IMG/VR virus record: IMGVR_UViG_3300025395_000007
Reading direction: 5' to 3' (one strand)
From: a virus
Length of the DNA: 64,000 nucleotides
A model generated the notes under the pieces. That model was not told where the DNA came from. It saw only the letters and a list, made by a program, of their open reading frames with translations, and did not search any database. A program made the position numbers and the translations under genes. Of the stretch, positions 5,191-56,549 are shown one piece after another; position 1 is the stretch's first letter; every line of letters starts with the position of its first letter.

Positions 5191-5766
5191 ATGGCTAACC
5201 GCACTGGACGTGTAAAAAACTATATTAACAATAAAACGCTCTACAATTCAATGATTGAACACAGAGCTAAATTAAAAGAAGCTCTAGATAACGAGAAAGC
5301 AAAGCCTCAAGTCAGTAACTATATCGGTCAATCTATTCTTTTGATTTGTAACAATTTAGCTAAGAAACCAAACTTTTCTGGATACACTTATAAACAAGAT
5401 ATGATCAGTGATGGAATCATTGACTGTATCGCCGCCGTGGATAATTTCAATCCAGATAAAACAAACAACCCATTCGCCTATTTTACTCAGATAGCATGGA
5501 ATGCTTTTATTAGAAGAATCCATAAAGAGAAAAAACAAACATATATCAAACATAAGAATTTCGAAAACAGTTTCCTTATGAATGAGTTATGGTCTGACTC
5601 TGAGAATATGCATCTTAAATCAAACGAATATTCATCTGATGTGGTAAGCAGCTATGAAAATAAGTTGACTAAAATCAAAAAAAATAGTAAACTAAGTGGA
5701 GTTGAAAAATTCTCTGTACTGGACGAGGAAGTTAAAAATGAAGAACTTGCATCTGATACCAATTAA
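5191..5766 (+). CDS. gp55: Late-transcription sigma factor
   Basis: KPNFSGYTYKQDMISDG and NPFAYFTQIAWNAFIRRI motifs. Confidence 0.95.
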   Translation: MANRTGRVKNYINNKTLYNSMIEHRAKLKEALDNEKAKPQVSNYIGQSILLICNNLAKKPNFSGYTYKQDMISDGIIDCIAAVDNFNPDKTNNPFAYFTQIAWNAFIRRIHKEKKQTYIKHKNFENSFLMNELWSDSENMHLKSNEYSSDVVSSYENKLTKIKKNSKLSGVEKFSVLDEEVKNEELASDTN

Positions 5767-11141: not shown

Positions 11142-12446
11142 ATGGTTAGAACACTTGTTGTAAAAAAGCGCGATGTAGAACATGTCCTTGGTACATTCAT
11201 CACCTGTGCAGATTATGCCGATGAAATCATTCAAGAAGATTGTGATTTGTATGCAGAATCGCTTGATGGAACTATCTCAGAAGAGAATATTATTTTCAAG
11301 TATCGCAAGAATGTTTTCAGTCAGGAAGAAATGGATGCGGCCTATACTGGTTTGAGAGATGCTGCGACTGAATCACAGAACCGTGGACTTGCCGCTGGTC
11401 CTCGTGGTGAACAACTTGGGGCTGAAGGTCGTGGTAATCGCGATTGGGTTAGCCCAGAACAAATTGAAATCCTTGCCTTTCTTGGTAGGCCATTAAATTC
11501 TTTTGATGATGGTACTACAATCGAAACGATTAAGGAAAGTCATAAGAAAGGTTCTAAGGAAGAAACTCGCGGTCAGGTATGGCTTCGTTCTGCAGTATTG
11601 CAGAAGTATGAAGAATACCATGGATGGTTTGATAAGTGGCTTGCTGGTATTCATAACCTTTCGCGTGAAGAACAGATGGCTGAAGCAAAGCATATTGTTG
11701 AAAATTATATTTCAGAAACAAATTATGCACAGTCAGTAATGTCTGGTATTGCTGGATACTTCGATCGTTATCCACGTATTCCATATGGTCGTGCAACTTC
11801 ATATACTGAAAAGAATTATGATAAGTTTGCGCTTGTTTTTCCATATCTTCGCAAACTTAATCAACAATTTAAAGAACTACTTCCTGTACGTTGGGGTGCA
11901 CAAAACGAATGTGCTCAAAAACTCGATCCTCGTTTTCGTATTGATGAAACTGTCTTTACGACATTGACAGTTAATCATAACTGGCGTACAGCTTGTCATA
12001 GAGATGCTGGAGACTTACATGAAGGATTCTCGAATATTTGCGGCATTACTGGCCCTGAAGGTAAAGGTTGGAAGGGCGCTGAGTTCATTCTTCCAGAATT
12101 TGGTATCGCTATTAATCTCCAGCCTGGAGATATGTTGCTCGTCAATAATCATGGTGGTATTCACGGTAATGATGCACTTATTGGAGATGATAATGATCGC
12201 CTTACCTTGGTATCTTATTTCCGCGAAAAGATGCTTGATCTCAAAGCTTGGGATTACGAAAACCTCCGCAAGCAATATGTCGATGAAAGACGAATGAATA
12301 AAGATCATCCACTTCATCGCCATCTTTGGAATGGTGTTTCTGCAAATATGTGGGATGAACAAGAATGGTATGACTATATGAAGAAGCATAATATTGCTGA
12401 CCCATATGGCAAAGAAGCAGCAGCGAGCTTGGATTCATTCTTCTAA
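11142..12446 (+). CDS. Tet/JBP-family 2OG-Fe(II) dioxygenase (putative DNA pyrimidine hydroxylase)
   Basis: FTTLTVNHNWRTACHRDAGD (HxD), IHGN and RLTLVSYFRE motifs typical of TET/JBP enzymes. Confidence 0.8.
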   Translation: MVRTLVVKKRDVEHVLGTFITCADYADEIIQEDCDLYAESLDGTISEENIIFKYRKNVFSQEEMDAAYTGLRDAATESQNRGLAAGPRGEQLGAEGRGNRDWVSPEQIEILAFLGRPLNSFDDGTTIETIKESHKKGSKEETRGQVWLRSAVLQKYEEYHGWFDKWLAGIHNLSREEQMAEAKHIVENYISETNYAQSVMSGIAGYFDRYPRIPYGRATSYTEKNYDKFALVFPYLRKLNQQFKELLPVRWGAQNECAQKLDPRFRIDETVFTTLTVNHNWRTACHRDAGDLHEGFSNICGITGPEGKGWKGAEFILPEFGIAINLQPGDMLLVNNHGGIHGNDALIGDDNDRLTLVSYFREKMLDLKAWDYENLRKQYVDERRMNKDHPLHRHLWNGVSANMWDEQEWYDYMKKHNIADPYGKEAAASLDSFF

Positions 12447-13126
12447 TGTGTGGTGTGCTAGGTATAGCGATTAAAAATTTTACAAAGAAAGACCACGATT
12501 TAGTTCGTGGTCTTTTCATTCAATCTATGATCCGTGGTAAACATGCTAGTGGTGTTTCATATGTCAAAAACGGAATTGTAAATACAGTTAAAGAATCAAT
12601 ACCTGCAGAAGAGTTTATATTAAAACAAAATTTAGATAATTGGAGAAATGAAGATGGAAACCTTTATTGTATTGGTCATATTAGGTATTCTACTTCTGAC
12701 TTGCGTTTTAATCAGCCCTTTGGAACTGATTTACTGGGCATTGTTCACAACGGAGTTATATCCCAAGAACCACCAGAAACTTGGGAAGAGAAATATGGAT
12801 ACAAAACAGAAACTGCAAATGACTCAGAATTGATTTTGAAATGCTGGGAACAACATCAAAATCCTTTGAGCGTTTTTCCTGAAGCAAGCATGGCAGTTTG
12901 CGGTATCAGTTACAATAAAAAATTAACTGCATTTAGAAATGCGGAAAGACCTTTGTATTATTACACTGATGAAAGGTCTAGTGTGTTTGCTTCAACTAAA
13001 GATATTTTAAATCGTTCTGGTTTATCATCTGTAACTAAAACAAAAATGTATGAAGTTATTACAGTTGAAGATTTTAATCTGACACGGCTTCCTATGAATG
13101 ACATTAATGTAGAGGACTTGCAATGA
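12446..13126 (+). CDS. Class II (Ntn) glutamine amidotransferase
   Basis: N-terminal MCG, RG.HASG, GHIRYST, HNG and DSE motifs. Confidence 0.9.
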   Translation: MCGVLGIAIKNFTKKDHDLVRGLFIQSMIRGKHASGVSYVKNGIVNTVKESIPAEEFILKQNLDNWRNEDGNLYCIGHIRYSTSDLRFNQPFGTDLLGIVHNGVISQEPPETWEEKYGYKTETANDSELILKCWEQHQNPLSVFPEASMAVCGISYNKKLTAFRNAERPLYYYTDERSSVFASTKDILNRSGLSSVTKTKMYEVITVEDFNLTRLPMNDINVEDLQ

Positions 13127-14007
13127 ATTACGATCCAAAAGATTATACATGGGGCTACGAAATTGAGTGGGGTGATATTGACAGGCGTACAATTATCCCT
13201 TCGCATTTAGGTAAGTGGGAATTTGCTGAAACAGATATTGTTAATTTGAATGGCGAGTTTCGTGGCCTTGCATGCGATCCATTAGGTGAATCACCTCCAG
13301 TTGGTGGTGAAATTAATACAAAGCCAACTGCAACTTGGCAAGATCAAGTTGAACGTATTATGGAAATTAAAAAGCTCTTTACTGATTTAAAACAATCACC
13401 AACAGCTTCTTGTGTCAATCATGGTCATCTTCATGTCTATGTTCCTGGATTGAAAGATGATATTCCTGCATTGAAGAAGTTAGTTAAGTATATTCGAGAC
13501 AATCAACACATTACAATTGATAGATTATATCAGTACCGTCTTGATCCTCTTATGTCCAGTGCTAAAACTGCCAAGACATATTTGAAGTGGGATGGTGGTC
13601 GTCCAATGCCCGACTATATGTGTAACAACATTATTAGTCTTACACAGGACTTCGAGCATTTTATTAAACTTCATGCGGCTGGTAAAGATGGTGTATCAAT
13701 GGGTCGGCCATTCCGATATGCAATCAATACATATTGCATGAAACATACTGGAACAATTGAGTTCCGTTGTTTGCGTTCTTCAACAGAGCGTAGGGAAATT
13801 GAAGACTCATTTAGGTTTGCGGAAAAGTTTATTGAAGCTGCATTAAATGATGGTCCACCAGTAGAAGATATTCTTAGCGAATATGATTATCAGTTTCCTA
13901 AATTTAATTACGACCATGAAATGTATCTCGGCTGGGAGAAAACAAAATATGATAAGTCAAGAGGCAATAAGCAACGTGAGTTCCTTTCAGTTGAGGCCAA
14001 CGACTAA
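13123..14007 (+). CDS. Amidoligase (COOH-NH2 ligase, glutamine-synthetase-like fold)
   Basis: GYEIE, GGEIN, HLHV and GTIEFR motifs. Confidence 0.8.
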   Translation: MNYDPKDYTWGYEIEWGDIDRRTIIPSHLGKWEFAETDIVNLNGEFRGLACDPLGESPPVGGEINTKPTATWQDQVERIMEIKKLFTDLKQSPTASCVNHGHLHVYVPGLKDDIPALKKLVKYIRDNQHITIDRLYQYRLDPLMSSAKTAKTYLKWDGGRPMPDYMCNNIISLTQDFEHFIKLHAAGKDGVSMGRPFRYAINTYCMKHTGTIEFRCLRSSTERREIEDSFRFAEKFIEAALNDGPPVEDILSEYDYQFPKFNYDHEMYLGWEKTKYDKSRGNKQREFLSVEAND

Positions 14008-14503
14008 AACTGAATTCATTGCTTCTCTTACTGATTTAAAAGAAGATAAGTTTGCCAAAACATTCGTTGCTAAATGCAACATGATGGATGATTGGGATAA
14101 ATGTAGGGGTGTGTGGATCGACGGTAGACTTGCAGGAGCTATCGTCGTTACCATTTCAAAACGTAAACCAATCACTGCTAATCTTCAACTTCTCCATACT
14201 TTCCATGAGTTCAGAGGTAAGGGTGTTGCTCGTAAATTGTGCGAGTGGGCAAAGGATCATGCTATTGAAATGGATGCAGAATACTTTCGTGTTTCTGCGG
14301 AGTTTGATGCGGTTCCATTTTATGAGAAGTGTGGATTTAAATTCGTTTGCAAACAAAAAACAGCCAAGCTCGCCATGTTTAAACTTTCTGACCCAGATAT
14401 TATTGATGAATACATTTGGAAAACGATGAAGAAAAAAGGTAAAGGCGGATGCGTAGAGTGTTACGTTGATTATAAAGGTGTTGACTTTTTTCAAGAAGTA
14501 TAG
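13976..14503 (+). CDS. GNAT acetyltransferase (start uncertain; frame open from 13883)
   Basis: FRGKGVARKL acetyl-CoA motif A and AVPFYEKCGF. Confidence 0.85.
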   Translation: MSSFQLRPTTKTEFIASLTDLKEDKFAKTFVAKCNMMDDWDKCRGVWIDGRLAGAIVVTISKRKPITANLQLLHTFHEFRGKGVARKLCEWAKDHAIEMDAEYFRVSAEFDAVPFYEKCGFKFVCKQKTAKLAMFKLSDPDIIDEYIWKTMKKKGKGGCVECYVDYKGVDFFQEV

Positions 14504-14509
14504 TATAAT
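14481..14509 (+). promoter_or_regulatory. Sigma70-type promoter
   Basis: TTGACT-N17-TATAAT followed by an AGGAG RBS. Confidence 0.8.
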
Positions 14510-14533
14510 ATCTATATAACTTAGGAGATTGTT

Positions 14534-15811
14534 ATGGATTACGATGCAATCGTTTACGGCTGGCGTAATATTGAAAATAAAATGATGTATGTGGGGTTCC
14601 ATAAAACCCAAGAAGAATTTGATGGATATGTCACTTCTTCCGAAAGCGAAGAACTTAGACATGCATGGTCACATGGTCTTTTAAATCGTACAATTCTTTA
14701 TCGTGGAACTGTTTCCGAGTCTATCACTTTTGAGAATTTTATTCTTAAGAGTGTTGATGCTCGCGTCAATCCTATGTTTTATAACCGCTCGAATGGTGGC
14801 GGCGTAGGCTGTCAATCTTTTGATATCATAACAAAAGATATGAAGAAGATTGCAGAAAAGTGGTTAGGTGGTAATGACAATATCAATAAATTAAAGCGTG
14901 AATTTCTCGCTAATAAAAAATTGGTTAAGTCGATTAAGAAAAAGATCGAAGCAGGTCATTATGTTATCTTCGAAGAGAAGATAGAAAACCTTGTCAATCT
15001 TCCACGCAACCAAGTTCGTTTGGTTGATTATGATCCTGATCATCTTCAAGAAATTACAGAGAGCATGCGATATGACCCAAAGGGTGCACGCAAATTAGTT
15101 TCTCCTGTAATTGTTTCTGTAGATGCAGAAGGATATAAACTAATCCTTGATGGCAATCATACCACAACTGCCGCATATAATGCCAAGTGGACAACCCTTC
15201 CTACAATCTACATTAACAGTTCAGACTTCGAGGATAACCAAGCTAACTATAATGATTTTGGATTGTTGATGAACCATCATCCAAAGCGTAAAAAATCTAA
15301 TACGAAAGAAGATTGTAAGAAAGCAATTATGAATCTTCTAGAGGTTTCTAAATTAGAAATCGGTTCATCTCAATTCCGCGAATGTTGTATTATTAATCTT
15401 GAAGAATATTTCAGTAAGCCAACAATTACTGCAAATATTAATTCTGTGGCTACAATTTTAAAAGAGCAACAGGATATTATTAAATACAACTTTAAGAAGT
15501 ATGGTAAATCTGATATTGAACAAATTACTAAAGGTTGCGAATATTTGAATCCAAATAAAGCGATTATTTCTATCACCTCTGATTCCTCATATAATGCAGG
15601 GGTTGGCGCTATTCTTAATAAGATGGGCGGTCTGGATTGTTGGGAAGGAATTATGCTTGTCAATCATAGAAATATGCACGAATACGATCGACGTAATGAA
15701 CATCATTCTAAACTTATGAAAGCACTTGAACGTATTCATCCAAATGCAAAAGTTGAAGTTCAATACCTACCTTCCTTCATTGATATGAAAAATAATGAAC
15801 TCCATCAGTAA
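14534..15811 (+). CDS. GIY-YIG-like N-terminal domain fused to a ParB/Srx-like domain
   Basis: IVYGWRN...MYVGFH...DGY...E...FYN (Seg-like); later NQVR...SPVIV...ILDGNHT (ParB-like). Confidence 0.55.
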   Translation: MDYDAIVYGWRNIENKMMYVGFHKTQEEFDGYVTSSESEELRHAWSHGLLNRTILYRGTVSESITFENFILKSVDARVNPMFYNRSNGGGVGCQSFDIITKDMKKIAEKWLGGNDNINKLKREFLANKKLVKSIKKKIEAGHYVIFEEKIENLVNLPRNQVRLVDYDPDHLQEITESMRYDPKGARKLVSPVIVSVDAEGYKLILDGNHTTTAAYNAKWTTLPTIYINSSDFEDNQANYNDFGLLMNHHPKRKKSNTKEDCKKAIMNLLEVSKLEIGSSQFRECCIINLEEYFSKPTITANINSVATILKEQQDIIKYNFKKYGKSDIEQITKGCEYLNPNKAIISITSDSSYNAGVGAILNKMGGLDCWEGIMLVNHRNMHEYDRRNEHHSKLMKALERIHPNAKVEVQYLPSFIDMKNNELHQ

Positions 15812-16781
15812 ACAACGTAAACAAGATTTCATAAATTGGTATAAGTGGTCGCTGTCCATTAAGGATTGCGACCCCGCCATTTTTATGACCAATTATCTTT
15901 TTGATAGATTTGAGCATAACAAAGAACAAAAACTTTGGATTGCTTGGATCTATGGTACAACGTATTATCTTCCAACAACATGGGTTATATGGAATGAATT
16001 CCCAGACTTCGAACTCGTCGGGCTTGAACGACTCCGCGAATGGAATAATAACAATTACAAACGGCTCCGTTATCAAACTGACACCAAGTGGAACAAAGGT
16101 CATCTTCCAGCCCAGTTCGAGTCGTACAAAAACTGGGTGGGAGATAAAACTCAACGCGAAGCATTTGCGCCCTATCTCATCGGAGAGCCAAGAGAAAACT
16201 TTGACCGACTCTGGCCAGAAATAAACAAGCTCCATAAATTCGGAAGATATTCTTCTTGGTTCTATATGCAAACACTTAAACAGTGCTGCGGTTTATCAAT
16301 TGAACCGAAGAATCTAATGTTGGAAGATCATGACGGTTCGCGTTCACATCGTAATGGTCTTTGTATGGCTCTTGGTCTAGATGAATGGTACGATCAAAAA
16401 CTTAACGCGCAACAGATTAATTATCTCGACGGCGAAGCTTACTACATACTTCAAGAGGTAAAGAAAGAATTTCCCACTACTGATTATTTCGATATGGAAA
16501 CTTGTCTTTGTTCGTTCAAAAAACTATTCCGTAAAACACGTGGACGTTACCTTGGGTATTATATTGATAGACAGGCAGAAGAAATTTCGCAGTGCGCATC
16601 AGATGACTGGAAAGGTATTGACTGGCAACCGCTTTGGGATGCCAGAATTGAAACTTTAGAAAATAAACTGTTGACTAATCGCATAGATAATAGTAGAATG
16701 AGTCTATACCTAGATTCTAACGTGTTGGATGCCACTGGACTTTTCGAAAAGAAAAGTGTTGGTCTTGAGGGGTTTTTTTAA
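15795..16781 (+). CDS. Amino acid:DNA transferase (aG/PT-PPlase family, HhH-glycosylase fold)
   Basis: DCDP, W..WIYGTTY, KFGRYSSWFY and ETCLCSFKK motifs; adjacent to a P-loop kinase. Confidence 0.75.
   Translation: MNSISKQRKQDFINWYKWSLSIKDCDPAIFMTNYLFDRFEHNKEQKLWIAWIYGTTYYLPTTWVIWNEFPDFELVGLERLREWNNNNYKRLRYQTDTKWNKGHLPAQFESYKNWVGDKTQREAFAPYLIGEPRENFDRLWPEINKLHKFGRYSSWFYMQTLKQCCGLSIEPKNLMLEDHDGSRSHRNGLCMALGLDEWYDQKLNAQQINYLDGEAYYILQEVKKEFPTTDYFDMETCLCSFKKLFRKTRGRYLGYYIDRQAEEISQCASDDWKGIDWQPLWDARIETLENKLLTNRIDNSRMSLYLDSNVLDATGLFEKKSVGLEGFF
16671..16699 (+). promoter_or_regulatory. Internal sigma70-type promoter upstream of the kinase
   Basis: TTGACT-N17-TAGAAT. Confidence 0.5.
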
Positions 16782-16901
16782 TGAAAGTTATTGAGATTTG
16801 CAGTGTTCAAAATGAAAACGAATCATAGCAGGTTTAACATAGAGTCAGTGGGACTGCCATCCGTGACTGACAATATATTTATAACATGGGAGATTTTAAA
16901 G

Positions 16902-17438
16902 ATGCGTGTGATAGCGATTGGTGGTGAGCCTGGATCTGGTAAATCCACATTAATGTGGAAGTTGATTAATCATTATCAACCGAAGCCTATGTATGATGCA
17001 TATAAGTTAGTTCCATATCTTCAGAAGGATAACATTTATATCCTTGGTAAGTATGAAGAAGGTGAAGTGTTTTCTGGCACTGATAGGATGAGCATGGCTG
17101 TCCAGCCAGAAGCTATTAAATTTTTAAGCACATTAAATGATAGCTCAGTTGTTCTTTACGAAGGCGATCGTTTGTTTACATCTTCATTCCTTGAAGATTG
17201 CGCTGAAAAATATACTCTTGAGATTATCTATCTTTCAACCTTAAAGGAAGTTAGAACCACGCGATACGCAGAGCGTGGTAGCAATCAAAATGAAACTTGG
17301 TTGCGTGGTCGTGAGAGTAAAATTGGTAACATTCTAACTAATTTCGATTTGATGTTTTTAACAGAGAAGTTTTTAAACAACAATCTAGATGAACAGAAAG
17401 TAGTATTTGATAAAATTGTGGAGAAGATAAATGAATAA
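16902..17438 (+). CDS. P-loop kinase, putative 5-hydroxymethyluracil DNA kinase
   Basis: IGGEPGSGKST, GTDRMS and YEGDRL motifs; GGGAG RBS; neighbourhood. Confidence 0.7.
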   Translation: MRVIAIGGEPGSGKSTLMWKLINHYQPKPMYDAYKLVPYLQKDNIYILGKYEEGEVFSGTDRMSMAVQPEAIKFLSTLNDSSVVLYEGDRLFTSSFLEDCAEKYTLEIIYLSTLKEVRTTRYAERGSNQNETWLRGRESKIGNILTNFDLMFLTEKFLNNNLDEQKVVFDKIVEKINE

Positions 17439-18728: not shown

Positions 18729-18744
18729 AACAAGGAGATATATT

Positions 18745-19398
18745 ATGAAGATTGATACAAATACAATTAGCGTTCTAAAAAACTTTGCCAAGATTAACCC
18801 TTCCATTATTGTACAGGAAGGGAACGTCTTGAAGACTATGTCAACAAACAAGACAATTTTGGCAAAGGCAAATGTCAATACAAATTTCGGTAAGCGATTT
18901 GCGATTTATAATCTAGATCGTTTTCTTTCCACCATTAGTTTGTTCAATAATCCTGAACTAAACTTCGGTGAGAAGTCTGTTGAAATTTCAGATGAAACTA
19001 AGAAGATTAATTATACCTATGCTGATGAATCTACCATCGCAAAGGCTCCAGAAAAAGAAATTAATCTTCCATCTGTTGACGTAATCTTTAAGCTTACTAA
19101 TGATAACTTGAAGGATGTTGAAAAGGCAGCTGGTGTTCTTCAGCTTCCAGAAATTCTTGTTTCTGGCGATGGAGTAAATGTATATCTACAGGCTGCTGAT
19201 TCAAAGAATCCTTCAGGTGATGTTTATTCGGTTGCTATTGGTACAACTGATAAGACATTTAAGGCTATCTTTAAGCATGAAAATATTCGTATCATCCCAG
19301 GTGATTATGAAGTAAGTATTTCATCTAAGGGCATCTCTAACTTCAAGGGTGCTGAAGCTGAATACTGGATTGCAGTTGAGCAGTCATCAACTTTCTAA
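18745..19398 (+). CDS. gp45: Sliding clamp
   Basis: T..VLKNFAKINPSI, FAIYNL..FL and YWIAVE motifs; 45-44-62-regA order. Confidence 0.92.
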   Translation: MKIDTNTISVLKNFAKINPSIIVQEGNVLKTMSTNKTILAKANVNTNFGKRFAIYNLDRFLSTISLFNNPELNFGEKSVEISDETKKINYTYADESTIAKAPEKEINLPSVDVIFKLTNDNLKDVEKAAGVLQLPEILVSGDGVNVYLQAADSKNPSGDVYSVAIGTTDKTFKAIFKHENIRIIPGDYEVSISSKGISNFKGAEAEYWIAVEQSSTF

Positions 19399-19443: not shown

Positions 19444-19460
19444 ATATTATGGAGTATATT

Positions 19461-20399
19461 ATGAACGAAGAATTTCTTTGGGTCGAGAAGTATCGTCCAA
19501 AAACTATTGAAGACACTATTCTTCCTGTACAACTAAAAGCAGTGTTTCAACAATTTGTTGAACAACAAAATATCCCTAATCTTATCCTATCAGGTTCAGC
19601 AGGTGTTGGTAAAACAACAGTGGCTCGTGCTATGCTTGAACAATTGGGGTGTGATTATATCGTAATCAACGGGAGTATGAATGGCAACATCGATACGCTT
19701 CGCAATGAGATCCTCAACTTCGCCTCTTCGGTCTCCCTCAGCGGAGGAAGAAAATACGTTATCCTTGACGAGGCTGACTATCTTAACGCAAACTCCACAC
19801 AGCCAGCCCTCCGTAACTTCATGGAGGAGTTCTCGCGGAATTGTGGGTTCATTCTCACATGTAACTTTAAGAACAGAATCATCGAGCCACTTCATTCTCG
19901 GTGTTCAGTAATTGACTTCAAAATCAGCAAGTCTGATATGGCTAAGTTAGCTGGACAATTCTTCAAACGTGTTCAGATGATTTTGGATAATGAAAAGATT
20001 ACCTTTGATACAACTGTTGTTGCAGAAGTAATTAAGAAACACTTCCCTGATTGGAGACGTGTTCTTAATGAGCTTCAACGATATTCAGCAACAGGTAGTA
20101 TTGATTCTGGTATTCTTGCCAATCTTCAGCAAGTGTCTCTAAATGAATTAGTTTCATTGTTGAAAGATAAAAACTTCAGCGGCATCCGTAAGTGGGTCGC
20201 CGAGAATCTTGACAATGATCAAAATACTATATTTCGGAAGCTCTACGACCATTGTTCTGAATTTCTTGTTAAATCAAGTGTACCCGCTCTTGTTCTTCTT
20301 CTTGGTAGGTATCAATACCAAGCAGCTTTCTCGGCCGATTCCGAGATTAATCTTATGGCTTGTTTAACAGAGATGATGATGGAATTGGAGTTCGTATAA
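19461..20399 (+). CDS. gp44: Clamp loader large subunit
   Basis: WVEKYRP, GSAGVGKT, DEAD and SRC motifs. Confidence 0.96.
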   Translation: MNEEFLWVEKYRPKTIEDTILPVQLKAVFQQFVEQQNIPNLILSGSAGVGKTTVARAMLEQLGCDYIVINGSMNGNIDTLRNEILNFASSVSLSGGRKYVILDEADYLNANSTQPALRNFMEEFSRNCGFILTCNFKNRIIEPLHSRCSVIDFKISKSDMAKLAGQFFKRVQMILDNEKITFDTTVVAEVIKKHFPDWRRVLNELQRYSATGSIDSGILANLQQVSLNELVSLLKDKNFSGIRKWVAENLDNDQNTIFRKLYDHCSEFLVKSSVPALVLLLGRYQYQAAFSADSEINLMACLTEMMMELEFV

Positions 20400-20776
20400 T
20401 GAACCCATTTGATTTTGTCAATTCTATTCTTAAAACAAAAAAAGATATAATGATAGATGCCGCTTCTGAGAAGGGGTATTCTTCATTCCTTTGTAATAGA
20501 GCGTTATCCTATCACTCAGATGCTATTCTATATGCTAACGAGATGAATATCAACCATCATCTTGATTCAAAACTTCAATTCCATTATTTAATAAATACAA
20601 TACGTCCAGCTAGCAGACCTTCTGTTAAGTGGGCGAAGCGTAAAGAAAATGATGCGATTGATGCTATACAGAAATACTATGGCTATAATTATGAAAAAGC
20701 CAAAGTAGCACTGTCCATCCTTTCTAAAGAACAAATAAAAATAATTAAGAACAAGTTTGAAAAGGGTGGAACATAA
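20399..20776 (+). CDS. gp62: Clamp loader small subunit
   Basis: PFDFVNSI, NRALSY and YYGYNYEKA motifs; synteny. Confidence 0.9.
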   Translation: MNPFDFVNSILKTKKDIMIDAASEKGYSSFLCNRALSYHSDAILYANEMNINHHLDSKLQFHYLINTIRPASRPSVKWAKRKENDAIDAIQKYYGYNYEKAKVALSILSKEQIKIIKNKFEKGGT

Positions 20777-24220: not shown

Positions 24221-24862
24221 ATGGCAAATATCGGCATTTATAAACACCATCCTTACTGTTCTGAACAATCTTCTTCTGGTGTTGTAGATGCTATAAACCA
24301 TTTCCATAAATGTAGTTATTTTAATGAAACTGATATTACTCCTGAGTTTTTAAGTCAATTTGATATGATAATATTTCCTGGAGGTATTGGTGACTCAGAA
24401 GAATTCTTTAATTTATTTCATTGGAGAAAAGCTGCAATAGTAAATGATTATGTAAAATCTGGAGGAAAATATCTTGGAATATGCATGGGTGCTTATTGGG
24501 CTGGTTCTCGTTACTTTGATATTATCGATAGCTTAGATGCAGTTCAATATATTAAACAGCCTGATGCATTAATAAAACGTAGTTATGGAACTGTTGTCCC
24601 AGTAATGTGGGAAGGTAATAATGAAATAATATATTTCTATGACGGATGTACTTTTGATGGAGACATATCTAAAGCACAAATCATAGGAAGTTATGGTTCG
24701 GGTCATCCTGCTGCGATAATTCAAGGTAATATAGGTTTGATTGGTCCGCATCCAGAGGCAAATGAGTTTTGGTTTGATACATGGAAATATATGCCAGATT
24801 ATTTTCATCGTGGTCACCATCATAAGTTGCTAAGAGAGTTTGTTAATAAATTGCTTAGATAG
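24221..24862 (+). CDS. Class I glutamine amidotransferase-like protein (BPL_N-like)
   Basis: FPGG, YLGICMGAY and GPHPE (Cys-His-Glu triad). Confidence 0.75.
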   Translation: MANIGIYKHHPYCSEQSSSGVVDAINHFHKCSYFNETDITPEFLSQFDMIIFPGGIGDSEEFFNLFHWRKAAIVNDYVKSGGKYLGICMGAYWAGSRYFDIIDSLDAVQYIKQPDALIKRSYGTVVPVMWEGNNEIIYFYDGCTFDGDISKAQIIGSYGSGHPAAIIQGNIGLIGPHPEANEFWFDTWKYMPDYFHRGHHHKLLREFVNKLLR

Positions 24863-24928
24863 CTCAGTTGGTAGAGCAGTGGTTTGAAGAACCACGTGTC
24901 GGCGGTTCGACCCCGTCTCTAAGCACCA
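24853..24928 (+). tRNA. tRNA-Phe(GAA)
   Basis: GTGGT-TTGAAGA-ACCAC; ACCA end. Confidence 0.92.
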
Positions 24929-24942
24929 TATAGGAGTATATC

Positions 24943-25155
24943 ATGTTTACAGTTGAACAAGTATTACAATGGCAAGGGATCAGCGTAGTTGATAGTCTTG
25001 TAGCATCTGATTTGTGTAAGTCTAAATCAGATGCTCGACGTATGATTGATCAGGGCGCTATTAAGGTAGATGATATGAAAGTAACTGATCATAATGCAGT
25101 TGTATTATTCAGTCCAGATAAAACAAAACATGTATTAGTACAAATTGGCGCATAG
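24943..25155 (+). CDS. Stand-alone S4 RNA-binding domain resembling the TyrRS C-terminal domain
   Basis: LVASDLCKSKSDARRMIDQGAIKVDDMKVTD; AGGAG RBS. Confidence 0.75.
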   Translation: MFTVEQVLQWQGISVVDSLVASDLCKSKSDARRMIDQGAIKVDDMKVTDHNAVVLFSPDKTKHVLVQIGA

Positions 25156-45134: not shown

Positions 45135-45800
45135 TTACTGTCCAATATCCAGTGTATCTTTCAATGAAGGAAACACTTTTGTTATTTCGTACCATGCATC
45201 AGTAGCTACCCCCCGATGCTCTTTTTGAGTGCCAATAGACATACGTAGCTGACAATAGTGAATCCAACTTCGAAGAGAACCAGCCATATAAAGACGAGAG
45301 ACAGTAAGACCTTCTGGCAAAACTGCACGAGCCTGTTCTTTTGCAATTCCATTACGAATTGCCCATTCATATTGTTTTTGTGCATATTCAATTACTATCT
45401 TTTGACGCTCATCCCAACCGTGTTTGAGCTCTGGATCGTCTTCTACTTCGATGGAGTTCTGTCTGTTTTTTGTATCTTGCAAACGGGCTTCACGAGTGAC
45501 GAATCCGAGGTCTTGGGTCGGATCCGCATATCTCTGGCTAAATTCTTGGAAAGAGAAGCTACGGTGGCGTAAAATCTGTCTAGCGATATCACGTGTGGTA
45601 TTAATCTCCATAACAACATGGACCATTTCGAATGGCGACCAATGTTTATTTTGCGCTAGATATTTCAATAACTTAGTTGATGTTAGTGTATTAGACTGAT
45701 TAGATGGATTACTTACACGAGCAACGTAAGCAATGAAATCATCAATATTCATATCTTCATTTATTGATTGCGTAACTGCAACAACTTTAGCATTATTCAT
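45135..45800 (-). CDS. thyX: Flavin-dependent thymidylate synthase
   Basis: HWSPFE, RHRSFSFQEFSQRY and TQKEH motifs. Confidence 0.95.
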   Translation of the reverse strand: MNNAKVVAVTQSINEDMNIDDFIAYVARVSNPSNQSNTLTSTKLLKYLAQNKHWSPFEMVHVVMEINTTRDIARQILRHRSFSFQEFSQRYADPTQDLGFVTREARLQDTKNRQNSIEVEDDPELKHGWDERQKIVIEYAQKQYEWAIRNGIAKEQARAVLPEGLTVSRLYMAGSLRSWIHYCQLRMSIGTQKEHRGVATDAWYEITKVFPSLKDTLDIGQ

Positions 45801-53959: not shown

Positions 53960-55879
53960 TTATGCGCTGCTGCCAACTACGTCAGTATCAACGTCAGGCT
54001 TTTTCATTTTTGGATTAAATTCAACAGGTGTTTTTGTTGCATTTTGTTGTTTTTTATCTGCAATAACACCTTTGATAGTATGCAGTCTTTCAGCATTTTC
54101 ATCAATAATTTTACGTTTGATTTCACCCTGTTTGGCAAGCTTAGAAGTTCTATCAAACGGAGACTTTGCTGATTTTGGGCGAGCAACGTTTTCAATTGAA
54201 GTGCGATCTCTCGTGCCTTCAGATTCTTCTTTGATTCTTTTTTTCATTTTACGACCATCTTCAAAGTGTAAACTTTCGTTGCCTTGACCGCCCATGAGTT
54301 CCATTCCTTCAGATCTTGTTTTCTTTTTTGATTTAGTTTTGCCACCATCTTCAGTAGGTGCACCACTTGCAGAAAGATCTGCCATTGATTGCGCATTACC
54401 TTCATTTGGAACAGTTGAATCTTCTTTGATTTTACCCTTGATAGTAGGGCTGTGTTCTTGTTTATTTACTTTTCTTTCACCAGAAATTTTGAGAGCTGAT
54501 TTAGTATTTTCAGGTGAAATATGTACTGATTTAAAATAAGAACTTCCTGGACGACCACCAAATTTATCAGTGCCAATGCCTAGTTCTTTGATAACTTTTT
54601 TAGTTTTATTACCATCTTCTGAATAAGAAATATTTTGTTGCGTAGAAACGCCACCAATATCACCCATTTCTTCTTTTACTGGAGCAGCGCGAGTTGCTCC
54701 AATTTTTTTACCATAAAAAGAAGATGGCATTGATCTTGATGCTGTGCCAAGTTGATTTAACGCAGAAGTTTGTGAAGTAGAAGTTTTAACTGGACCATGT
54801 TGCGCTATTGGCATTGCACCTGCAGAATATGGAACAGGAGCAGCCCCACCGCCACCTAATAAAGACGCTAATGCTGGAACTTTTTCCCACCACTTTGCCC
54901 CTTTTTCTGCAGCTTCTGCGCCTTTAACTTCTTTAGATGCAGCATCGCCTGTTTTAACTACTTCATCACCTGCTTTAACTGCTTTTTCGCCACCTTTAGC
55001 TGCATCAGTTGCAGCTACTTCGCCATCTTTAACTGCTTTTTCTGCGGCATCTGTGCCTTTGATTAATTTCTCAGCTTTTTCGGCACCTTCGCCACCTTTC
55101 AGTGCGAGTTTAGCACCACCTTCAATGGCTTTACCCACAGTACCAAGACCTGGAATCATCATCGCAGCATCTAAAACACCAGTGCCATATTCACCACGAT
55201 TAAAATCTCTTTTAGCTGAATAACCAGCTGCAGCTGTACCAACACCTGGAACAAAAGTTCCAACATCAGCCGCTAAATCTTTAGCGCCATATTGATATTC
55301 TGGATCTTCAGGTTCATAATCACCAGTTTGTGGATTTCTTTGACCTTTAGCTAATAAAGGATTATATGGATCTAGATAAGAACCTATTTTATTTGCAATC
55401 CCCCAATTACTTTTATCTGGAGCTGGTTGATTTGCAGGTTGTTGAGGGGTTGATGAATCATTAGATGCTGCAGCGCCACTAGGTTGTTCTGCAGGCACCT
55501 TCATTGGTGTAGGTCCATCAGAATCTTCATATTCTTCTTTTTTCTTAGCTACTGCTTCTTTAACATCACCAATTCTTCCACGTTTCATATTATTAATAGG
55601 AAACTCATTGGCAGCATTTCTAGAATTTGATGCTGTTTGATTTTGTTTTAGATTATCTACTCTTTCTTGTTGTTTACCTTGTCCTGGACCACGAAGAAAA
55701 GGAGCTGGAACGCCAAGATACTTATCAGAATCATTAGGTGCGATACCTTCATGAATGTTTCTGATAGAATGCTCAAGCGTCAAATGCGGTTTATGTTCTA
55801 CAACAGGCTTTTCTCTGTTGTAGTTTTGATCCGCAACTGCTTGTCTAATAGCGTGTTCTAGACTAGTATACTTTTTCAT
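53960..55879 (-). CDS. Large low-complexity protein with a Gly-rich hydrophobic hairpin, probable internal head protein
   Basis: FVPGVG...MIPGLG segment; IKEE and VKEE repeats. Confidence 0.55.
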   Translation of the reverse strand: MKKYTSLEHAIRQAVADQNYNREKPVVEHKPHLTLEHSIRNIHEGIAPNDSDKYLGVPAPFLRGPGQGKQQERVDNLKQNQTASNSRNAANEFPINNMKRGRIGDVKEAVAKKKEEYEDSDGPTPMKVPAEQPSGAAASNDSSTPQQPANQPAPDKSNWGIANKIGSYLDPYNPLLAKGQRNPQTGDYEPEDPEYQYGAKDLAADVGTFVPGVGTAAAGYSAKRDFNRGEYGTGVLDAAMMIPGLGTVGKAIEGGAKLALKGGEGAEKAEKLIKGTDAAEKAVKDGEVAATDAAKGGEKAVKAGDEVVKTGDAASKEVKGAEAAEKGAKWWEKVPALASLLGGGGAAPVPYSAGAMPIAQHGPVKTSTSQTSALNQLGTASRSMPSSFYGKKIGATRAAPVKEEMGDIGGVSTQQNISYSEDGNKTKKVIKELGIGTDKFGGRPGSSYFKSVHISPENTKSALKISGERKVNKQEHSPTIKGKIKEDSTVPNEGNAQSMADLSASGAPTEDGGKTKSKKKTRSEGMELMGGQGNESLHFEDGRKMKKRIKEESEGTRDRTSIENVARPKSAKSPFDRTSKLAKQGEIKRKIIDENAERLHTIKGVIADKKQQNATKTPVEFNPKMKKPDVDTDVVGSSA

Positions 55880-56310
55880 TTTAGGGTAGCCTTAATCATC
55901 CAATCATACTTGTAATGTTTATCAATACGGTCTTGAAGGATATTTGCTAAACCAACAGCATTTTGAGTCTCTGCCATTTTATTAGCTTTCTTCATTTCTT
56001 CAATGAAACGAAGGTTATCCATTTGTAATTGTTTTAACATATTATGTGCAGATGGTACATTTAGTTCGTCTTCAATCTTTGATAATTCTAGATATCGACT
56101 TAAACTACCTGGAGCATATGAATCAAGGGTGCGAATTTCTTCTGCAAAAATATCAACACCATCAAAGAATAACTCATACATATCATTTAAAAATTTATGA
56201 TACTGAGGAAAACTTGGACCTTCGATGTTCCAATGGAAGTAATGGGTTTTTAAATACAATGAGAAGTTAGTTGCTAGAACTACCTTCATCTGATTGATTA
56301 ATTCTTTCAT
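55876..56310 (-). CDS. dps: Dps-family ferritin-like protein
   Basis: HWNIEG..F..YH and D..AE..R ferroxidase motifs. Confidence 0.92.
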   Translation of the reverse strand: MKELINQMKVVLATNFSLYLKTHYFHWNIEGPSFPQYHKFLNDMYELFFDGVDIFAEEIRTLDSYAPGSLSRYLELSKIEDELNVPSAHNMLKQLQMDNLRFIEEMKKANKMAETQNAVGLANILQDRIDKHYKYDWMIKATLK

Positions 56311-56549
56311 TTTGAAGCTTTCTTAGTAGTAGTTTTCTTAACAGCTGGTTTCTTAGGAGCTTTTGCTGGTGTTTTCTTTTCAATCAACTTTTCAGTTTTT
56401 GTACGTCTTTTTTCATTCTTTTCTTCAATAGTTACTGCAGGGGCAGCTACAGGCTCTAAAATTTCAACAACAGGTTCAACAATAGGCGCTGCAACAACAG
56501 GTGTTTCTTTTTTTGTACCAAAAATGAATTTCGCAAGTTTCTTAAACAT
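56307..56549 (-). CDS. Small basic Lys/Pro-rich protein
   Basis: AAGGA RBS; coupled to dps. Confidence 0.6.
   Translation of the reverse strand: MFKKLAKFIFGTKKETPVVAAPIVEPVVEILEPVAAPAVTIEEKNEKRRTKTEKLIEKKTPAKAPKKPAVKKTTTKKASK

Follow-up and report, generated by a model that had tools for sequence, protein, structure and literature searches.

We analysed a stretch of 64,000 nucleotides (IMG/VR record IMGVR_UViG_3300025395_000007), referred to here as the window, which represents 64 kb of an uncultured, aquatic, T4-like phage and for which no near-identical phage record was found. Its gene order runs from gp22, gp23, uvsY, uvsW, gp55, gp47 and gp46 through a DNA-modification cluster to gp45, gp44, gp62 and regA, followed by 24 tRNA genes. 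This study concerns the C-terminal tails of two enzymes of the cluster, a Tet/JBP-family dioxygenase (Tet) and an amino-acid:DNA transferase (ADDT), as candidate binding peptides for the phage sliding clamp gp45. The proteins and peptides in question are listed below; the matrix that underlies the scores is described in the next section.

11142..12446, + strand: Tet/JBP-family dioxygenase (5mYOX), 434 amino acids; PF12851, 67.8 bits (cut-off 34.9)
12423..12443, + strand: Tet tail ASLDSFF, residues 428-434, candidate sliding-clamp-binding peptide; gp43-matrix score 19.5, rank 1 of 101
15795..16781, + strand: amino-acid:DNA transferase ADDT/AADT (formerly aGPT-Pplase), 328 amino acids; PF18724, 94.2 bits (cut-off 26.2)
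16758..16778, + strand: ADDT tail VGLEGFF, candidate sliding-clamp-binding peptide; gp43-matrix score 11.7, rank 2 of 101
5191-5766, + strand: gene of the late sigma factor gp55, 191 residues; phrog_234
5695..5712, + strand: gp55 element SGVEKF, residues 169-174 of 191, followed by a 17-residue acidic tail; at the place of the clamp-binding epitope of T4 gp55
18742..19398, + strand: gp45 sliding clamp, presumed docking platform; PF09116 and phrog_223

The columns of H286-x-D288, H341 and R353 in Tet are invariant in an alignment of 40 homologues and correspond to the His-x-Asp...His...Arg catalytic set. The window gp45 matches the RB69 and T4 clamps (1b77/1b8h and 1czd) over its full length with an E value of about 1e-22. 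Its gene begins about 2 kb after that of ADDT, where an earlier note on this DNA had placed it. That note had also quoted four strings as resembling clamp-binding motifs, namely ASLDSFF in Tet, VGLEGFF in ADDT, KGVDFFQEV as the C-terminus of a GNAT acetyltransferase of the cluster and SGVEKF in gp55, and all four are present in the sequence as described. The motifs of Tet and ADDT are extreme C-termini; the gp55 element precedes its acidic tail, as is likewise the case in T4 gp55.

Likeness of the enzyme tails to the polymerase tail

As the reference for scoring, we used the gp43 polymerase tails of this phage group, not that of T4. From related IMG/VR contigs, 80 gp43 homologues were gathered, 79 of them complete and comprising 44 distinct tails. 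A 7-column log-odds matrix was derived from these 44 tails alone and run over the C-termini of all proteins at four offsets. Every one of the 79 complete homologues ends in [Ser/Thr/Asn]-[Leu/Ile]-[Asp/Glu/Gly/Asn]-x-[Phe/Leu]-[Phe/Trp] plus zero to two residues, at the same position as KASLDFLFG of T4 gp43. This clade tail, Thr/Ser-Leu-Glu-x-Phe-Phe, is closer to the enzyme tails than SLDFLF of T4, a point that the earlier note had overlooked.

Among the 101 proteins of the window, Tet and ADDT stood apart from the other 99, all of which scored -1.8 or less. The ADDT tail also ranked first among the C-termini when a gp55-derived matrix was applied (score 6.7). We then scored the 238 proteins of G006, a 162-kb contig that is 98% complete and shares the gene order of the window; here, Tet (21.5), gp43 (21.1) and one baseplate protein (17.8) were separated from the rest at -1.6 or below. 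Over the proteomes of the window and G006 together, only 6 of 68,912 seven-residue segments reached a score of at least 10, and five of the six are the named C-terminal tails. In the cultured Stenotrophomonas phage DLP6 (557 open reading frames), the matrix returned gp43 (21.2), Tet (19.4), an 86-residue protein (14.2) and a TET-associated glycosyltransferase (TAGT; 7.2), with everything else at 0.6 or below. The 86-residue protein is a gp33 homologue (phrog_254), and since the gp33 of T4 is known to be a client of the clamp, its presence among the matches indicates that the matrix picks genuine clamp clients. Across 160 related loci with 2,879 open reading frames, the polymerase-type tail occurs on only seven families: gp43, Tet, TAGT, a methyltransferase-like protein, two ADDT groups and a 104-residue protein encoded beside gp43. 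Judged by sequence, Tet and ADDT end in the same peptide as the polymerase tail of this phage group.

We searched the window for gp33 and found none. The gp33 homologues of G006, G001, Cr30 and C48C1 (L303, L304, L302 and L301) end in Leu-Asn/His-[Phe/Ile/Tyr]-Leu plus six to eight residues, which is nearer to Leu-Asp-Phe-Leu of T4 than to the local polymerase tail; a polymerase-type tail was seen only in the gp33 of DLP6. Because the gp33 of the closest genomes ends in this different Leu-Asn-[Phe/Ile]-Leu element, followed by 7-8 residues, gp33 could not be used as a third internal reference.

The tails are also conserved. All 79 complete Tet homologues (55-95% identity) end in [Leu/Ile]-x-x-[Phe/Leu]-Phe plus at most one residue, and the 5-8 residues ahead of this tail vary in sequence and length. 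Among the ADDT proteins, both the orthologues and two paralogous subfamilies of only 24% and 31% identity, most sequences end in [Leu/Ile]-x-x-Phe-[Phe/Met] plus zero to two residues, again behind a variable stretch. Every one of the 28 distinct tails of gp55 homologues has the element in the form Gly-[Val/Ile/Leu]-x-x-[Phe/Tyr] and, after it, an acidic tail, with Glu at the third place in 27 and Phe in 27. A polymerase-type tail is absent from four homologues checked in other phages, namely the Tet proteins of the podovirus HTVC112P, the siphovirus P12024L and S-CBWM1, and the ADDT of mycobacteriophage Zemanar. A search for gp45 in S-CBWM1 and Zemanar gave no match; HTVC112P and P12024L, which are phages of 32-36 kb, were not searched. 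For the GNAT protein, something similar to the tail was found in only five of eight homologues, the remaining three ending differently.

AlphaFold2 single-chain models were built from the homologue alignments. The Tet model has a mean predicted local distance difference test (pLDDT) value of 80, which falls to 61 for residues 421-430 and to 49 for residues 431-434, with a helix at 430-433. In the ADDT model (mean pLDDT 85), residues 311-328 lie below 50 and a helix spans 324-327. As modelled, each tail extends from the fold at low confidence and finishes in a one-turn helix, an appearance typical of short linear docking motifs. The epitope of T4 gp55 sits on a divergent 17-residue connector (PMC2988020), and the Tet and ADDT tails of the window are likewise placed on variable linkers.

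With a receptor common to the enzymes and the polymerase, the enzyme tails would be expected to change along with the polymerase tail, and this is what we observed in the following phages:

DLP6: gp43 ATLDSFFA; Tet ATLGDFFV; TAGT (PF20691) DLSSFFN
C48C1: gp43 TLEDFFG; Tet SLEEFFV
Caulobacter phage Cr30: gp43 DLSSLFD; TAGT-like protein DLSKLF
Ackermannviridae Maynard, XF4, May and IME250: gp43 VNLL[S/A]MM and a basic end; ADDT V[N/S]L[L/M]xL[L/M] and a basic end
Vibrio phage D503: gp43 RKLW; ADDT RKLW

The tail similarity matrix shows a block structure by phage, T4 gp55 against T4 gp43 serving as positive control. The tail of the TAGT-like protein of Cr30 is the nearest to the gp43 tail among 283 proteins, with a value of 24 compared to 14 for the next. 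TAGT proteins (PF20691) encoded at L015:3638-4432 and 19 other loci, in DLP6 (24235-25098) and in Cr30 (55518-56444) end in the tail variant of their own phage's polymerase. The ViI-like ADDTs (L260 and L272-L274) end as their own polymerases do (L268 and L275-L277), in Val-Asn-Leu-Leu/Met-x-Met/Leu-Met/Leu plus basic residues, and the D503 pair (L262 with L270) shares Arg-Lys-Leu-Trp.

Gene content of the modification cluster

Besides Tet and ADDT, the cluster and the adjoining clamp-loader locus comprise the following genes:

12446-13126, + strand: class-II glutamine amidotransferase; PF13522; tail score negative, no clamp-type tail
13123-14007, + strand: 294-residue amidoligase-like protein; faint PF12224 match; tail score negative, no clamp-type tail
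13883-14503, + strand: GNAT acetyltransferase; PF13673
14534-15811, + strand: ParB-like protein, probable dioxygenase activator; phrog_1033 and a faint PF02195 match; no clamp-type tail
16812..17438, + strand: P-loop nucleotide kinase 3 of the 5-hydroxymethyldeoxyuridine (5-hmdU) DNA kinase type; PF18751; no clamp-type tail, homologue tails unconserved
19449..20776, + strand: gp44 and gp62 clamp loader; orthologues of 77% and 41% identity adjoin gp45 in the syntenic contig G006

The modification cluster lies immediately upstream of gp45 and the clamp-loader genes, and the order gp45-gp44-gp62-regA is the same in the window, in T4 and in DLP6. A 2026 study (PMC13229309) described ParB-dependent 5mYOX enzymes and tied the combination of Tet, glutamine amidotransferase, ParB-like protein, P-loop kinase and AADT to ParB-dependent thymine dioxygenases. 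Neighbours of this type (ParB-like protein, amidotransferase, P-loop kinase and AADT) are present round the window Tet; by its gene neighbourhood, Tet is probably a ParB-dependent thymine dioxygenase. Because the gene set matches the published one, the cluster most likely encodes a post-replicative thymidine-hypermodification pathway acting on DNA, which would lead from thymine to 5-hydroxymethyluracil and on through phosphorylation to amino-acid transfer and tailoring, with the amidotransferase, the amidoligase-like protein and the GNAT as the tailoring enzymes. ViI-like and M6-like thymidine hypermodification (PMC8989533) has the succession of 5-hmdU, DNA kinase and amino-acid:DNA transferase in common with this scheme; the term "sliding clamp" does not occur in the full text of that paper.

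A thymidylate-synthase-family gene (phrog_85) is located at 45135-45800, beside ribonucleotide reductase genes, and no match to a DNA cytosine methyltransferase family was obtained among the window proteins scanned, a scan that covered part of the open reading frames. Together, these two observations fit thymine and not 5-methylcytosine as the Tet substrate. ViI-like and M6-like phages reportedly make 5-hmdU before replication and not by means of a Tet enzyme.

The GNAT tail KGVDFFQEV was rejected as a clamp motif, since the gp43 matrix gave it a score of -7.0 and the gp55-derived matrix one of -0.7. The proposal that several pathway enzymes carry T4-type clamp-binding peptides consequently holds in part: the comparison by polymerase-tail match, conservation and co-variation strongly favours it for Tet and ADDT, as well as for gp55, but not for GNAT. 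As listed, the GNAT frame shares 125 nt with the end of the gene before it (13883-14007), for which reason the true start is probably a later ATG.

Three further proteins of the cluster have conserved C-termini that were rejected as clamp motifs because of negative matrix scores. The amidotransferase ends in Asn-Val-Glu-Asp-Leu-Gln (13106-13123), and nearly all of its 30 complete homologues end in [Glu/Lys]-Asp-Leu-Gln behind a variable stretch; this is a conserved tail of another kind, which may dock on another subunit of the pathway. The 294-residue amidoligase-like protein has the conserved basic end Lys-Gln/Ser-Arg-x-Phe-Leu/Ile, and most homologues of the ParB-like protein end in Ala-Ala.

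In some relatives, a 262-residue protein is encoded directly after Tet (L004:2369-3157 and six other loci). It has a faint methyltransferase-fold match (PF00398, E 0.004), its tail reads Asn-Thr-Leu-Asp-Asn-Phe-Phe, and it stands in the place of the ADDT branch in the relatives that carry it.

Proposed recruitment by the sliding clamp and its alternatives

That gp43, gp55 and gp33 have clamp-binding tails is textbook knowledge for T4. The three tails are interchangeable clamp-binding motifs (PMC2988020), and for RB69, the polymerase-tail peptide is seen docked on gp45 in the solved complex 1b8h. What the present analysis shows is the motif itself, how rare and how conserved it is, its disorder and the way it co-varies with the polymerase tail. 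Since two DNA-modifying enzymes share the tail peptide of the polymerase, modification is probably hitched to the replication machinery. We consider it likely, from these sequence comparisons, that Tet and ADDT carry T4-type clamp-binding peptides and that gp45 recruits them to newly made DNA. Both are among the enzymes expected to act on DNA itself, and each has its tail peptide on a flexible linker. Clamps loaded in replication, including those left on the new duplex DNA, would recruit the dioxygenase and the transferase, and fresh DNA would be oxidised and aminoacylated promptly and processively. Such recruitment would parallel that of the late-transcription factor gp55 by the clamp. The phage clamp loader places gp45 on primer ends and nicks. 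We infer both the binding of the Tet and ADDT tails to gp45 and its functional consequence. The further suggestion of the earlier note, that modification is confined to newly replicated phage DNA and has a self/non-self role, is speculation.

Several observations weigh against recruitment by gp45. The kinase, which is expected to act on DNA too, has no such tail, and two ADDT variants in related contigs are devoid of the motif. The Tet and ADDT of Cr30 and the ADDT of phiA8-29 are unlike the polymerase tails of their own phages. Neither the window nor any of the five longest contigs bearing Tet contains the gp43 gene of the window phage itself, for which reason the gp43 tail had to be inferred from relatives, namely G006 and a contig out of the sample that also yielded the closest relative. 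A further point is raised by a gp26-like baseplate hub protein (PF12322; G006 127745-128458, which is L169:13745-14458), which ends in Ser-Leu-Asn-Asp-Phe-Phe-Thr-Trp-Arg inside the Pfam domain. This string is conserved in relatives (L180-L259) and scores like a polymerase tail; the DLP6 and Cr30 copies of the protein gave no score with the matrix. Because it sits within the Pfam domain, a motif-like string may be structural; for the baseplate string, the choice lies between a coincidence of structure and a clamp contact, which would be unexpected for a virion protein. Evidence from other systems also has to be considered. The alpha-glucosyltransferase of T4 has no polymerase-like tail and nevertheless binds gp45, and modification levels were reported not to be set by its affinity for the clamp (PMC13216743). 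ParB-dependent dioxygenases are active in E. coli in the absence of gp45 (PMC13229309), which indicates that the clamp is not strictly required for catalysis; it would consequently raise efficiency or targeting and not enable the chemistry.

An alternative that we regard as unlikely is that the tails serve the enzymes themselves, in folding, in oligomerisation or in contact with the ParB-like activator or some other subunit of the pathway, and that their likeness to the polymerase tail is convergent. Other pathway proteins do have conserved C-termini of a different kind, such as Asn-Val-Glu-Asp-Leu-Gln of the amidotransferase, and the baseplate protein illustrates that a string of this type can be structural. 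However, the tail follows a variable, low-confidence linker, is carried by at least three unrelated folds (Tet, ADDT and TAGT) and tracks the polymerase variant in the Ackermannviridae, Cr30 and D503, with no Tet or ParB partner of the ADDT in view there. The published truncation, moreover, took away the whole C-terminal extension and not the last six residues alone.

Even less probable, in our view, is docking on another common partner, be it the host beta clamp, the single-strand-binding protein gp32 or the clamp loader. The data show that the enzymes share the polymerase tail, not which protein receives it, and the motif is loosely like bacterial beta-clamp-binding motifs, the host beta-clamp motif being Gln-Leu-Ser/Asp-Leu-Phe. 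Against such a partner stand the binding of the homologous T4/RB69 polymerase tail to gp45 (1b8h complex), the lack of the tail in every homologue checked outside gp45-encoding phage groups, and the related elements carried by gp55 and by the gp33 of DLP6, the T4 counterparts of both being clamp clients. That short hydrophobic and acidic C-termini resemble one another by chance might be suspected for a motif of just 5-6 residues, and GNAT shows how easily a look-alike is read into a tail; while this explanation stands for GNAT, it is effectively refuted for Tet and ADDT, given that, besides the C-terminal tails, 1 of the 68,912 segments scored at least 10, which corresponds to about 0.006 expected matches (101 proteins, four offsets) compared to the two observed, and given that the Tet tail is kept in 79 of 79 homologues and co-varies with that of the polymerase.

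Recruitment by gp45 would place Tet and ADDT beside the known epitopes of T4 and RB69 gp43, gp55 and gp33, with which their tails have in common a short peptide, hydrophobic and acidic, located at the C-terminus or close to it, a divergent linker and the occurrence on the polymerase and other gp45 clients alike. They differ in that the clients here are DNA base-modifying enzymes instead of factors for replication or transcription, and in the local form of the peptide, Leu-x-x-Phe-Phe at the very end as opposed to Leu-Asp-Phe-Leu-Phe in T4. A DNA-modifying enzyme on a clamp has precedents. DNMT1 is a maintenance DNA-modifying enzyme tethered to the clamp PCNA by a PCNA-interacting-protein (PIP) box, and in both cases a modifying enzyme would be held on a replication clamp by a short motif, Leu-x-x-Phe-Phe being the second half of the PIP box. 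However, the canonical form Gln-x-x-[Leu/Ile/Met]-x-x-[Phe/Tyr]-[Phe/Tyr] is not found here, as the glutamine position is occupied by Ala or Lys in Tet, ADDT and gp43. The motif is furthermore C-terminal instead of internal, and the setting is that of a phage and of hypermodification chemistry. The second precedent is the T4 alpha-glucosyltransferase, likewise a phage DNA-modifying enzyme linked to the phage clamp; according to the account of Sommer et al. (2004) cited and reproduced in PMC13216743, it co-purifies with gp45 and is believed to act on DNA close behind the fork. In contrast to Tet and ADDT, its missing polymerase-like tail implies a contact of another kind, and it acts on pre-made hydroxymethylcytosine.

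The ParB-dependent thymine dioxygenases of 5mYOX clade C1 have the enzyme set of the window and, on the dioxygenase, likewise a C-terminal extension, whereas gp45, the replisome and a polymerase-like tail go unmentioned in their description; the role of the C-terminus was left open, and the rationale for post-replicative modification was called a mystery (PMC13229309). In the full texts searched, subscription-only papers being outside our scope, we found no link of Tet/5mYOX, AADT or TAGT to a sliding clamp and no mention of polymerase-like tails. Post-replicative hypermodification must cover a large genome fast enough to escape host nucleases. A polymerase-type clamp tail offers a concrete and testable answer to how the enzymes find fresh DNA, namely recruitment by the replication clamp.

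Whether this amounts to a rule for phages with a gp45-type clamp is, in our estimate, evenly balanced. According to such a rule, hypermodification enzymes of unrelated folds (Tet/5mYOX, ADDT, TAGT and the methyltransferase-like protein) would each have gained the clamp tail of the cognate polymerase independently and then co-evolved with it; the clamp would act as a tool-belt behind the fork, and clamp loading would set where and when DNA is modified. If recruitment by gp45 is correct, the enzymes form a new functional class among its clients, the position of modification clusters next to clamp genes is explained, and reconstitution of the pathway in vitro is predicted to improve on clamp-loaded DNA. 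It might also provide a sequence rule for spotting DNA-acting enzymes in phage genomes, which asks whether an enzyme ends like the polymerase of its own phage. The Ackermannviridae examined, which are related to the well-studied phage ViI, conform to this rule as well, in that their ViI-type transferases end like their own polymerases.

Finally, a protein of 103-104 residues without a family match, which is encoded just upstream of gp43 (L087:6207-6554 and four other loci), has the tail Ala-Thr-Leu-Glu/Asp-x-Phe-Phe/Ile/Leu and is, by this ending, a candidate for a new small clamp client.

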